Origin: a virus
Lineage: Duplodnaviria > Caudoviricetes
Reading direction: 5' to 3' (one strand)
IMG/VR virus record: IMGVR_UViG_3300045747_000505
DNA: 64,000 bases
The notes under the pieces were generated by a model that was not told the origin of the DNA, searched no databases, and saw only the letters and a program-made list of their open reading frames with translations. The translations under genes and the position numbers were made by a program. Shown in pieces: positions 14,984-18,199 of the stretch (within the stretch, counting starts at the first letter, position 1; every line of letters starts with the position of its first letter).

Positions 14984-17263
14984 ATGAAAACCTCCCTCGC
15001 TGGCGAATTCGCCGGCAAACAAATCTCCGTCACCCTGAGCGCCACAAACCCTGGTGGCTTCTCCGTGGTTCCGTCTTTGCAAGACCAACCATCACCAAAC
15101 CTCATTGTCGGGTTCGACGACAAGGTGACCTTCAATGGGAAGGACCTTCGTCTTGAGATCACCCCAGACTCAGTAGGGGTGAAGGTCGTGGACAACGGTC
15201 TCAAGAAGAACACCGTCACCGTCACCACCCCGAATGGCGACAAGAAGACCTTCGACGTCAAGAAGAACTCGAAGCCGACTCTGGACTTCGGCCCGCTTCA
15301 AGGCGTCCTCCCAGGCGTCCTGATGGACGACTTCCCGTTCGACGTCACGGCTGTCGCTGGTGCTGTTGCTGAGGTTCTTCCGGAAGAAAAGCCGAACACG
15401 TTCGAGCAGAACTGCTGCGTCATCTATCTGACTTCAAAGTCAGCCACCGAAATTCATACGCTGAGCCTAAAGCGGTTCCTCGGCGGCACCATTTCGCACC
15501 CAGAGATCGATGGTGTCAGAGTCGACTACTTCAATCAACAGACGAACTTTCTGCTCGACACCATGATGTCGGCCGGTGCCATCGACCGTTTGATCGCCAT
15601 TGTCAAGAAGGCGGTACACGACCTTGGGTGCCGATCACTGTTCATAATGGCCGACGAAGCCCACGTTGCCAGCGGCGTTGATCATCAGCTTGGGAAGGTG
15701 CTGGCACACTTCAACTTCGTTTCGACGAACGGCGGGACCATTACCGTCGACGGCATCGAGGTTTCGCTGCGAATCATTGCCACTACCGCTACACCGACAA
15801 CGAAAATTTCTCACGCTCTCGGCCTCAAAACCCCGATCATGCACGTGTACACCGAGCCAGGTGAAGGCTACTTTGGTGTCGACAAGTTGTTTGCCGGCAA
15901 TCGCTTCGTCGAAGCCGATAAGGCGCTGACCCCGGCTGCTCTTGCCGAAATCCTGTTGGCTCATCCTGGGTATAAGAAGGACGGCATCATCGTGCTGCGC
16001 CTTCCATCGAAGGCGCGAAAGAACAAGGACTTTGCCAAGGAGCTTAGGACTGCGCTCGGTGGTCAACACGCGATCGATGAGTTCGATTCGAAGCGGAACA
16101 ATCTGAAGGAGTTCGACGAGTACGTATCCGAAGGGATCGAAGCTCGTGGTCGCGGTGCGATCGTTCTGCTCAAGGACGGTTTCAGTGCCGGCTTCACGCT
16201 CAGCTCAACCAAGCTCATCGCCTGTTGGGTCGACCTTTACTACAACGCCTTCGAAGCTCAGTGCCAATCCGTTGGCCGCATTTTTGGTTACGGGAAGACC
16301 AACGACACCTTCCCAGTGATCACAACGCGCCACGGGCTCGAACGGTACCAAGAGATCATCGTCAAGCATCGTCTTGCCCAAATCCCAAGTGTCAACGTGA
16401 CGTTGAGCACGGCGAAGCGCAAGGCGTCGCAATCGCGGTTCAAGTTCGCGGCCAAGGCTCAATACGAAATTGGCACGCTGAAAGACTTCCAGGAAGACTT
16501 TCGGCGCCGCCACGAAGTGTGGCCAGCCGCGCTGGTGGACGGAGAGACGAACAGCGATTCGGAATACCACGTTTGCGGATGGACGCAGCAGAACATTTCA
16601 GACACGCTGCATCGTCCAACGCATGGCATCCAGCTGCGCGCGTTCGACCTTAGTGTCCCTGGTGTCGCCAATGACGCGGAGCTCGAGAAGGCCGATTGCC
16701 CGAAGTGGTTCAACAAGGATGGCTCTCCTTTGCCGAGCGCCTTGCCAGACGGCCGCAAAGGACCAAAGGAACCAGAAGCTTACTTCAATAGCTTCGTAGC
16801 GCTCCGCAAGAAGTACAAGGACCAGATGGCCGAGGGCAAAACCTTCATCTGGGCCTCCACCAAGTTGAACACCGTGGTCAGCGCTTTCGATGCCAACGAG
16901 GAAAAGACCGGCAAGCCTCTTCCTACTGGGATTGGTCCTCCGGACAGAAATCCCTCAAGCACGAACGATGAGGACTGCGTCCCGAACGTGTTCTTCACGG
17001 GAGATCCAGAGCCTTGGATCGTCGAGCTGGTGAAGTACGTTCGGTTGCAGCTCAACGGGCTTTATGCAACCAACCCGAAGCCAACTGATCCGATCTACGA
17101 GACCACGATCGAGCCTGTCGCAAAGCTGCTTAGCGCCATTCACACCGGCGAGGAGTCGACGATCCTGCTCACGGCTCAGATGCAGGCCGGCAAGACAGGT
17201 ATAATGATCCTTCTCATGCACTGTCTGCCGCGCTTCATCAATCACACAGCCAGGATCAAGTAA
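14984..17263 (+). CDS. Circularly permuted superfamily-2 helicase/ATPase
   Basis: DEAH at 15653-15664, TATP, DGFSAGFT, QSVGRIFGYG, then Walker A AQMQAGKTG at 17174-17200 near the C-terminus. Confidence 0.75.
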   Translation: MKTSLAGEFAGKQISVTLSATNPGGFSVVPSLQDQPSPNLIVGFDDKVTFNGKDLRLEITPDSVGVKVVDNGLKKNTVTVTTPNGDKKTFDVKKNSKPTLDFGPLQGVLPGVLMDDFPFDVTAVAGAVAEVLPEEKPNTFEQNCCVIYLTSKSATEIHTLSLKRFLGGTISHPEIDGVRVDYFNQQTNFLLDTMMSAGAIDRLIAIVKKAVHDLGCRSLFIMADEAHVASGVDHQLGKVLAHFNFVSTNGGTITVDGIEVSLRIIATTATPTTKISHALGLKTPIMHVYTEPGEGYFGVDKLFAGNRFVEADKALTPAALAEILLAHPGYKKDGIIVLRLPSKARKNKDFAKELRTALGGQHAIDEFDSKRNNLKEFDEYVSEGIEARGRGAIVLLKDGFSAGFTLSSTKLIACWVDLYYNAFEAQCQSVGRIFGYGKTNDTFPVITTRHGLERYQEIIVKHRLAQIPSVNVTLSTAKRKASQSRFKFAAKAQYEIGTLKDFQEDFRRRHEVWPAALVDGETNSDSEYHVCGWTQQNISDTLHRPTHGIQLRAFDLSVPGVANDAELEKADCPKWFNKDGSPLPSALPDGRKGPKEPEAYFNSFVALRKKYKDQMAEGKTFIWASTKLNTVVSAFDANEEKTGKPLPTGIGPPDRNPSSTNDEDCVPNVFFTGDPEPWIVELVKYVRLQLNGLYATNPKPTDPIYETTIEPVAKLLSAIHTGEESTILLTAQMQAGKTGIMILLMHCLPRFINHTARIK

Positions 17264-17266
17264 CTT

Positions 17267-18199
17267 ATGAAATCACCGATCGTCATCATGACATGGCAAC
17301 GTGCCAGTCTTGCGCAACAGAAGACTTGGGCCCGCATTCCTGATGACCTTCGGTCGCTGGTGCGCTTCGCTTGCCGCGAGGACGAAGCGCCGTTCTTCGA
17401 GAGCCTGCAACGGCCGTATGGCACGAAGCCATTCGTTCTCCCGTCCCACGTCGCTTCGATGAAGGAAACTCGTCAAGCGATCTGGGACCACTTCAACAAC
17501 ACCGACGAGTTCTGGTGCCAAATCGACGACGACACGAAGAAGTTCCTGAAGCTCGACTACCATTGGCAAGATCCTGAAGAGCGCGAGAAGCGTCGGAAGC
17601 CGTGGGACGAAGGTGATGCACCACAGCAGCGCCTGTACGAGATTCATGCCAAGCCTCGCCATCAGCACAGCTTCGATGGCCTTGAGGCGATGTTCGATCG
17701 CTGCATCGATGTGCTGAAGTCGAACCCGTACATCGGCACGGTCTCACCACGGCAGACGTTCAAGATGGCGTCGCCGAAGACGCCGCTTGGTGATTTTGGC
17801 AAGACGATCAGCAACGATCCCAACTTCCTCGGCTCGGCCGAGCTGTGCGTCGGCTTCAATGCCTTCTGCTCCGAGCGCAATCTCAAGCTGAACTACGAGT
17901 TCAAGTGGAACTACTGCGGTGACACCGGCATGATCTACCGGATGCTGAGCCAGGGCTATGACACCGTGTACCTTCGTGACTACACGATCGATCAAGATCG
18001 TCCGACCAAGGGTGCGACCTGGCGCAAGAGCTCTGTCGAAGAGTTCCGACAGTTCCGTGAAGAATACCCCAACTACTTCCGAGACGAGAAGAAGATCGAC
18101 GATGCAGTTCAATCGTCAGACCAACCACAGAAGGGTTGGAAGATGCTGCGGTCGAAGCTGCTGAAGGATGCTCGCAAGCGTCTTCAGATCGTCGTCTGA
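17267..18199 (+). CDS. GT-A fold glycosyltransferase, TAGT/GREB1-like family
   Basis: IVIMTWQR, TRQAIW, WCQIDDD..KF, CGDTGMIYRMLSQGYDT, KGATWR. Confidence 0.65.
   Translation: MKSPIVIMTWQRASLAQQKTWARIPDDLRSLVRFACREDEAPFFESLQRPYGTKPFVLPSHVASMKETRQAIWDHFNNTDEFWCQIDDDTKKFLKLDYHWQDPEEREKRRKPWDEGDAPQQRLYEIHAKPRHQHSFDGLEAMFDRCIDVLKSNPYIGTVSPRQTFKMASPKTPLGDFGKTISNDPNFLGSAELCVGFNAFCSERNLKLNYEFKWNYCGDTGMIYRMLSQGYDTVYLRDYTIDQDRPTKGATWRKSSVEEFRQFREEYPNYFRDEKKIDDAVQSSDQPQKGWKMLRSKLLKDARKRLQIVV

Follow-up and report, generated by a model that had tools for sequence, protein, structure and literature searches.

A circularly permuted SF2 helicase encoded beside a TAGT-family glycosyltransferase in an uncultured jumbo phage

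The gene pair and the motif order of its helicase

The stretch of DNA analyzed here, hereafter the window, comprises 64 kb (64,000 nucleotides) of the virus record IMGVR_UViG_3300045747_000505 and belongs to an uncultured jumbo phage. It is phage-like, with a high GC content (~58%), nearly all genes on the + strand, and most genes without a Pfam match. Two adjoining + strand genes are the subject of this study. The first (positions 14984 to 17263) encodes P0001, a protein of 759 amino acids (aa) assigned by its motifs, its relatives, and its AlphaFold2 (AF2) model as a circularly permuted helicase/translocase of superfamily 2 (SF2). The second (17267 to 18199) encodes P0002, a protein of 310 aa assigned by PF20691, PHROG, and structure comparisons as a GT-A glycosyltransferase (GT) of the TAGT family. 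An AGGA precedes the ATG of the helicase open reading frame (ORF), and gene callers run on independent assemblies give the identical 759-aa product. The junction between the two genes consists of the TAA stop codon followed by CTT, that is, a 3-nt gap, and a second AGGA sits within the end of the helicase gene.

The motifs of P0001 occur in an unusual order. ADEAH (residues 223 to 227, motif II), TATP (268 to 271, motif III), DGFSAGFT (398 to 405, motif V), and QSVGRIFG (428 to 435, motif VI) are followed, behind motif VI, by the Walker A segment TILLTAQMQAGKTG (residues 726 to 739, including G736-K737-T738), with 20 residues from GKTG to the TAA stop. A reading of this DNA from the sequence only had described one uninterrupted ORF with motifs II, III, V, and VI and then Walker A about 20 codons before the stop, and we found all of the motifs as quoted. 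The SF2 motifs I, II, III, V, and VI are thus all present and intact, and the near-invariant columns of the family include A269, T270, G403, Q428, G431, and R432. Because all catalytic motifs are intact, P0001 is predicted to be an active ATPase/translocase.

P0001 can be divided into four parts, all encoded on the + strand. Residues 1 to 135 (positions 14984 to 15388) form an N-terminal β-rich extension that has no counterpart in canonical relatives and is modeled with a predicted local distance difference test (pLDDT) score of 28 to 63. Residues 136 to 465 (15389 to 16378) form the helicase core, recognized by motifs II, III, V, and VI and by alignment to the cores of relatives; it contains the rest of RecA domain 1 (RecA1) and all of RecA domain 2 (RecA2), and it opens at strand β2/motif Ia (VIYLTSKS, residues 146 to 153). 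Residues 466 to 672 (16379 to 16999) make up a C-terminal extension and a linker to the permuted segment; this part is modeled with low confidence, and residues 512 to 638 are conserved in the permuted homologue on a diverged metagenomic contig, L004 (P0065, residues 3 to 127; E ~1e-27). Finally, residues 673 to 759 and the stop codon (17000 to 17263) represent the displaced N-terminal module, which was delimited by alignments and the model and contains an almost invariant block in four permuted lineages. The module consists of two helices, strand β1 (726 to 731), the P-loop A735-G736-K737-T738-G739, and helix α1 (737 to 758).

Circular permutation and its conservation

Using HMMER in a full pass over 1.84 billion representative proteins, we found 59 relatives of P0001. 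All relatives that have both motifs show the canonical order, with a Walker A motif of the form x-M/L/P-Q-x-G-K-T lying ~80 to 120 residues ahead of DExH. The C-terminal segment of P0001 finds its homologue in the N-terminal Walker A segment of these proteins (P0009, E=1.3e-14; P0026, E=7.7e-8; search of 1.8e9 proteins). When P0001 was split and each part was searched against the relatives, the result was swapped and non-overlapping: in P0004, residues 193 to 244 at the N-terminal side correspond to query residues 705 to 755 and the core (239 to 556) to query residues 136 to 457; in P0005, residues 11 to 91 correspond to 670 to 751 and the core (105 to 471) to 146 to 505; and in P0006, residues 167 to 246 correspond to 672 to 748 and the core (254 to 568) to 143 to 457. 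Overall, the N-terminal segments of the relatives map to query residues 660 to 755, and their cores map to 136 to 510.

The alignments also locate the breakpoint. The permuted proteins stop a few residues past helix α1, whereas the canonical ones run on into β2/motif Ia (V-G-V-x-x-x-T-x-K-S-L-T), a stretch found in P0001 at residues 146 to 153, at the start of the conserved core. Since the permuted tails end where the canonical heads continue into β2, the break falls between α1 and β2 of RecA1. The displaced unit takes in ~60 residues (two helices) that stand before β1 in the canonical proteins. Judged by this swapped mapping, P0001 is a true circular permutation of an SF2 helicase, as had been proposed from the motif order, and the permutation most likely originated by a tandem duplication followed by the loss of both outer ends.

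The structure model is consistent with this assignment. For folding we used one alignment, A3, which was checked row by row, and discarded another, A2, because MAFFT kept placing motif V of RecA2 (AGFTL/AGKTL) opposite the RecA1 P-loop strand (AGKTG) whenever canonical N-terminal fragments were included. Residues 725 to 739 of P0001 (β1/P-loop) and residues 393 to 406 (a RecA2 strand and motif V) are alike enough for MAFFT to swap them, an alignment trap in this family. In the resulting AF2 model, the core (141 to 465) has pLDDT values mostly of 80 to 94, while residues 1 to 135 and 466 to 672 are poorly defined. The C-terminal module (672 to 759; pLDDT 61 to 90) contains helices at 677 to 695 and 706 to 721, a strand assigned by DSSP at 726 to 731, and a helix at 737 to 758. 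Foldseek matched the model to RecQ/BLM, DEAD-box, and HsdR helicases (E 1e-6). With VIA-align, the best match was RIG-I (residues 286 to 795; Z 12.0, root-mean-square deviation 4.5 Å, 294 aligned residues, model residues 139 to 482), followed by Snf2-type proteins, RadD, and RecQ with Z values of 9 to 10.6. On the strength of the model, P0001 is an SF2 helicase/translocase with two RecA-like domains.

The alignments start inside the targets, at residue 286 of RIG-I, 47 of RadD, 63 of RecQ, and 213 of dengue NS3. In the residue numbering of these helicases, the starts would lie a few residues past the Walker A helix of each target, which would agree with a core that lacks its own β1, P-loop, and α1. 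Homology, the DSSP assignment (a strand needs a pairing partner), and the local confidence support a location of the strand 726 to 731 in the RecA1 sheet, which it would complete, with K737 at the ATP site.

Outside this set of relatives, searches with the pair returned little. Full-length P0001 had no match in Pfam, PHROGs, NCBIfam, or the PDB sequences, and neither protein nor the 5.5-kb region found a match when 50,697 phage genomes were searched with tblastn and megablast. IMG/VR scans with the helicase and the GT found no relatives; a metagenome scan with the GT found none, and one with the C-terminal helicase block found canonical relatives only, one of them on a giant-virus-like contig. 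A word-indexed search of 5.8 billion proteins recovered only the helicase query itself. In the ESM Atlas, the look-alikes of P0001 are mostly giant-virus (Nucleocytoviricota) proteins; when ordinary helicase families are excluded, the nearest named look-alikes are Z1-domain (PF10593) phage proteins (score 0.91).

The canonical viral ResIII-like SF2 helicases (~500 to 800 aa, encoded on phage and giant-virus-like contigs and not covered by a dedicated Pfam family) are homologous to P0001 over the ATPase core and the Walker A module, and they share the x-M-Q-x-G-K-T-G and DExH signatures. Unlike P0001, they have Walker A first, and none of those inspected adjoins a TAGT gene. One of them, P0008, is encoded at positions 3727 to 5880 of a 48.8-kb phage-like contig (L008) with NUDIX, PTPS (QueD-like), and QueC genes ~4 to 6 kb off (10001 to 11803), pointing to a 7-deazaguanine pathway of DNA modification in that phage.

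The pair itself is conserved. At least five contigs, up to 273,537 bp long and drawn from at least four samples, encode an identical GT. In all three of these contigs that are readable, the helicase ORF lies 3 nt upstream of the GT; it is 759 aa long in two, and in the third the contig ends within it, leaving 566 aa. Diverged metagenomic loci from three other samples (L001, L004, and L005) encode GTs 80 to 87% identical to P0002, each preceded by a helicase ORF that is open to the contig edge and ends in the P-loop module, with the GT following after 3, 11, and 12 nt, respectively. Among the four lineages, the C-terminal helicase segment shows 41 to 44% identity overall, and 15 of the 21 positions of the P-loop block L-T-x-x-M-Q-x-G-K-T-G-I-M-I-L-x-M-H-C-x-P are kept in all four, a pattern that indicates selection on the C-terminal ATP-binding loop. 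The co-occurrence of permuted helicases and TAGT proteins in phages, which the sequence-only reading had cited from comparative genomics, is therefore seen here in four phage lineages.

The same data bear on whether the unusual ORF is an artefact, either of misassembly or of a decaying remnant of tandem helicase genes (one copy lacking its 5' end, joined to the 5' part of the next) that lacks a functional ATP site. A permutation by duplication does pass through such a tandem intermediate, and residues 466 to 672 are poorly modeled. Against this stand the independent assemblies from several samples with the same ORF, the three diverged homologues that keep an open frame and a near-invariant P-loop block amid changed residues, and the intactness of all other helicase motifs. 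Misassembly had been named beforehand as an outcome that long reads might reveal, but the same layout recurs in independent contigs and at three diverged loci. Because of this recurrence and the near-invariant P-loop block, misassembly or gene decay is very improbable, and we regard this explanation as largely refuted already.

The glycosyltransferase and the kinship with GREB1

P0002 carries the motifs TRQAIW (residues 68 to 73), QIDDD (85 to 89), and GDTGMIYRMLSQGY (218 to 231). It matches the Pfam TAGT profile PF20691 with E=6e-6 over profile positions 2 to 199 of 205 and PHROG 842 (β-glucosyl-HMC-α-glucosyltransferase) with E=3e-13. Five remoter relatives found by profile search (P0064 and P0070 to P0073; 30 to 42% identity) all carry PF20691, and D87-D88-D89 is invariant across nine sequences. 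The AF2 model (pLDDT 77, predicted template modeling score 0.79) has a GT-A fold, for which VIA-align gave Z values of 13.8 with GalNAc-T1, 13.1 with GnT-I, and 10.0 with Fringe. The best viral predicted structures are TAGT proteins with template modeling scores of up to 0.78, including the enzymes of Ralstonia phage phiRSL1 and Klebsiella phage PKO111, and 39 of the 40 named neighbors in the ESM Atlas are TAGT clusters. By profile and model, P0002 is a TAGT-family GT-A glycosyltransferase, so that the sequence-only reading was right in placing a TAGT-like GT-A protein 3 nt behind the helicase. It is predicted to use a nucleoside diphosphate (NDP)-sugar through the DDD metal site.

P0002 resembles the TAGT enzymes of phages T2 and T6 and those associated with TET/JBP in its GT-A fold, its acidic DDD motif at 87 to 89, its size, its phage origin, and its profile, PHROG, and structure matches. 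TAGT members of T2/T6 glucosylate DNA bases (PMC13216743). P0002 differs from known phage TAGTs in having no α-/β-GT, TET/JBP, or hydroxymethylase partner in the window and a helicase in place of a base-oxidizing enzyme as its partner. It also has two clade-specific, low-confidence insertions (~99 to 137 and ~166 to 183), which are common to the four helicase-linked GTs and are absent from the solitary relatives; the latter lie on small phage contigs without a helicase. Another named relative of the TAGT/GREB1 transferase domain is the kinetoplastid base-J glucosyltransferase (JGT), compared here by description only, which glucosylates hydroxymethylpyrimidine in DNA (PMC7968844). The partners of JGT are JBP dioxygenases, and a permuted helicase has not been described for it.

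The closest known parallel to the arrangement is found in animals. GREB1 is described as having a Zn domain at its N terminus, then an SF2 helicase that is circularly permuted and catalytically inactive, and a TAGT/Fringe-like transferase at its C terminus (PMC7968844, PMC6163654); the sequence-only reading had named this helicase-TAGT fusion as well. GREB1 O-GlcNAcylates the estrogen receptor (PMC7968844, PMC6163654). GREB1/GREB1L and the phage pair have in common a permuted SF2 helicase with a C-terminal P-loop followed, in the same order, by a TAGT GT-A domain. They differ in that GREB1 is a fused protein with a Zn domain and an inactive helicase, whereas the bacteriophage encodes two genes and its helicase has intact motifs and no Zn domain. 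At three loci (the window, L001, and L005) the helicase and GT are in frame with each other; in L004 they are not. Read-through of the stop codon to give a GREB1-like fusion was considered and rejected, because the frame is kept in only three of the four lineages.

Is the GREB1 helicase domain homologous to P0001? In a Pfam scan of the helicase-alignment members, cpSF2-GREB1 (PF20692) was the most frequent family (8 of 53, best E=6e-6). The profile matches the cores of canonical relatives at profile positions 76 to 260 (P0024, 32.1 bits; P0022, 27.3 bits; cut-off, 26.2) and their N-terminal Walker A segments at positions 677 to 708 of 716 (P0018, E=8e-5; P0028, P0014, and P0034 more weakly). 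Since PF20692 matches canonical relatives in this permuted fashion, the GREB1 P-loop module lies at the C-terminal end of the helicase domain, as in P0001. Residues 725 to 750 of P0001 align weakly to profile positions 678 to 703 (10.7 to 12.1 bits, E 0.07 to 0.2). P0024 and P0022 pass the PF20692 cut-off over the region that aligns to P0001, so the homology between P0001 and PF20692 is transitive, not direct; on this evidence, the GREB1 helicase domain and P0001 are assigned to the same helicase family.

Their closer relationship is less clear-cut. In a maximum-likelihood tree of the cores, P0001 sits on a long branch and groups (87/94) with canonical phage-type relatives that have no PF20692 match, while the PF20692-matching members form a separate clade; the tree contains no GREB1 sequences. 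A placement of P0001 with the PF20692-matching clade was not rejected by the approximately unbiased test (p=0.217). The phage helicase and GREB1 may have been permuted independently at the same breakpoint. GREB1 is a known precedent for the domain combination, as are other phages for TAGT enzymes. To these the present pair adds the phage two-gene form, with a helicase that has all catalytic motifs, its presence in four lineages, and the canonical relatives that define the breakpoint. We found no phage two-gene version with a catalytically intact permuted helicase in the searchable literature, although the primary 2013 paper may mention viral counterparts.

The two genes might also be neighbors without coupling, the helicase serving replication, recombination, or transcription and the TAGT acting alone. 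Solitary TAGT homologues are indeed common, occurring in 288 of 753 GT-encoding phage genomes (PMC13216743); the closest non-linked GT relatives, P0064 and P0070, have no helicase nearby, and canonical helicase relatives occur without an adjoining GT. What makes this arrangement of independent enzymes improbable is the retention of a 3- to 12-nt adjacency in four lineages despite a differing flank (ThyA in the window, Tpt1 in L005) and a helicase tail with the low identity given above, together with the fusion of the same two domains in the same order in GREB1 and the two insertions of the helicase-linked GTs. A complex prediction for helicase residues 136 to 759 and the GT scored 0.00 against a mark of 0.32; it was run without controls and gives no verdict on binding.

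Gene neighborhood, candidate acceptor, and function

Upstream of the pair lie a split type II topoisomerase, two DnaJ paralogues, a cpYpsA SLOG protein (12767 to 13345), and, directly before the helicase gene, the RNA 2'-phosphotransferase Tpt1/KptA (14254 to 14811, +, identified by Pfam). The pair abuts thyA, as had been stated from the sequence: a genuine ThyA thymidylate synthase (18277 to 19194, +; Pfam, TIGR03284, and PDB matches) is encoded 77 nt downstream of the GT gene, followed by a small ORF and then a macro/DarG-like domain protein (19514 to 19984). Further off in the window are a T4 Rnl1-type RNA ligase (37446 to 38597), PhoH (40171 to 40965), and a Thg1-like tRNA-His guanylyltransferase (61252 to 62082). 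Tpt1/KptA, cpYpsA, the macro/DarG-like protein, the RNA ligase, PhoH, and the Thg1-like enzyme make up a scattered group of genes related to RNA repair and ADP-ribose, and they suggest a toolkit for repairing damaged tRNA in this phage. A Tpt1 homologue also follows the GT directly in L005 (1544 to 1696), so proximity of Tpt1 to the pair is kept in two gene orders.

A 172-nt intergenic gap separates Tpt1/KptA from the helicase gene. At its head, over the Tpt1/KptA stop codon, is a perfect palindrome of 9+9 nt with one central base (14805 to 14823), which is unique in the window, with 0 chance matches expected, and may be a hairpin or operator candidate. No sigma-70-like promoter was called in the gap, and no promoter or operator motif recurs in the window. 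The earlier statement that the pair has an upstream element of its own is thus weak, and so is the suggested AT-richness at third codon positions. The GC content at these positions is 0.708 in the helicase gene and 0.736 in the GT gene, below that of the immediate neighbors (KptA, 0.79; ThyA, 0.807; topoisomerase genes, 0.82 to 0.83) but inside the spread of the genes of the window (0.62 to 0.85), where further genes stand at 0.62 to 0.73. The pair is no compositional outlier and shows no sign of recent foreign origin.

Other features of the window are recorded here in their own right. Two genes make up the split type II topoisomerase, one GyrB/TOPRIM-like (7369 to 9498) and one GyrA/topo IV subunit A-like (9852 to 11231), with a 114-aa ORF between them. 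The DnaJ-domain paralogues (11910 to 12770 and 13370 to 14257) stand on either side of the cpYpsA gene, and the first also has a DnaJ C-terminal domain. Two very large ORFs have no Pfam match (25716 to 31529, +, 1937 aa; 44701 to 48960, -, 1419 aa). Other families include an SCO1/SenC-AhpC-like thiol-disulfide protein (53115 to 53756), DUF4376 (33102 to 33620), a Laminin_G_3/concanavalin-like protein (31529 to 32239), and a permuted papain-like C92 amidase (33632 to 34252).

ThyA was examined as a possible source of a modified pyrimidine. It scores 271 bits against the thymidylate synthase equivalog TIGR03284 (cut-off, 108), and its best PDB matches are all thymidylate synthases, aligned to the last residue; the score and the matches rule out a disguised dUMP/dCMP hydroxymethylase. 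The protein is of the long, insert-bearing type, and among solved structures it best matches eukaryotic enzymes (protozoan DHFR-TS, Pneumocystis, and human TS) and not bacterial ones.

What, then, might the pair do? The interpretation that we favor is a coupled module in which an ATP-driven helicase assists the glycosylation of nucleic acid, in all likelihood the DNA of the phage, with an anti-restriction role, and we give it about an even chance. A helicase-assisted DNA glycosylation module for anti-restriction or exclusion had also been proposed from the sequence. In this module, the first structural unit of RecA1 has been shifted from the N terminus to the extreme C terminus of the SF2 motor, and the GT gene, beginning 3 nt past the helicase stop, would probably be translationally coupled to the helicase gene. 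Fueled by ATP, the helicase would translocate along nucleic acid or open it and present bases to the transferase, which would then glycosylate them, the likeliest substrate being a modified pyrimidine in phage DNA. Glycosylation after replication would shield the phage genome from host nucleases. We infer the ATPase activity, the cooperation of the two proteins, the nucleic-acid (DNA) acceptor, and the anti-restriction role from the conserved tight adjacency, the fusion in GREB1, and the chemistry of characterized TAGT enzymes other than GREB1.

Several observations weigh against this interpretation. Regarding the parts of the module, it is homology, pLDDT, and DSSP that place the P-loop at the ATP site; P0001 itself falls below significance against PF20692, the whole protein giving no match; P0002 scores 26.8 bits against PF20691, 0.7 under the gathering score of 27.5; and the closest solitary TAGT relatives (loci L003 and L011) work without any such helicase. 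Regarding the acceptor, Pfam found no TET/JBP, dCMP/dUMP hydroxymethylase, primary α/β-GT, or other DNA-modification gene among the ORFs scanned in the 64-kb window, which bears out the earlier statement that no TET/JBP dioxygenase or hydroxymethylase is visible there; this negative covers the window only, and ~209 kb of the 273.5-kb contig lie outside it. Such an acceptor-making partner is a feature of genomic context that a TAGT does not require, given how common solitary TAGTs are. ThyA is an ordinary thymidylate synthase, so thymine would not be replaced wholesale. The neighbors of the pair (Tpt1, the macro domain, and cpYpsA, with Rnl1, Thg1, and PhoH further off) are RNA-repair/ADP-ribose genes, not DNA-modification genes. 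Finally, GREB1, the sole experimentally characterized cpSF2-TAGT protein, O-GlcNAcylates protein, and its helicase is called inactive.

Many of these points would fit the same architecture acting on a substrate other than DNA, either RNA (for example, tRNA in damage/repair conflicts) or protein, with the helicase as a nucleic-acid-bound scaffold or remodeler. GREB1 modifies the estrogen receptor and is not known to glycosylate DNA. Tpt1/KptA adjoins the pair in the window, and in L005 a Tpt1 homologue flanks it on the opposite side; the remaining RNA-repair and ADP-ribose genes are present in the window, and an acceptor-making DNA enzyme is not. In addition, the best structural match of the helicase core, RIG-I, is an RNA-dependent SF2 ATPase, though tied with DNA translocases. 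On the other hand, the characterized TAGT and J-base transferase group, GREB1 apart, acts on DNA bases, jumbo-phage gene neighborhoods are only loosely functional, and the acceptor pathway may sit in the 209 kb outside the window. We consider a non-DNA substrate the main alternative, though an unlikely one.

Returning to the coupled module, it is possible, though doubtful, that the pair is a free-standing, catalytically competent counterpart of the GREB1 module, perhaps a relative of its ancestor, in which a motor drives the glycosylation of nucleic acid and the acceptor may bypass the TET/hydroxymethylase routes. GREB1 is a clinically important hormone-response protein, and the half of it that resembles a helicase is seen as a dead relic whose purpose is unknown. 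From a viral version one would learn the original use of the helicase-TAGT combination, and the phage pair offers a small, bacterial-scale system in which its purpose can be probed. For protein evolution, P0001 represents a clean natural circular permutation, by its alignments, of a RecA-type ATPase, with canonical and permuted forms both at hand. If the pair is such a motor-driven counterpart of the GREB1 module, it would represent a type of base glycosylation, ATP-dependent and motor-assisted, that is so far without a described viral example, and such a route for glycosylating DNA (or RNA) would be relevant to restriction evasion and to nucleic-acid labeling tools.

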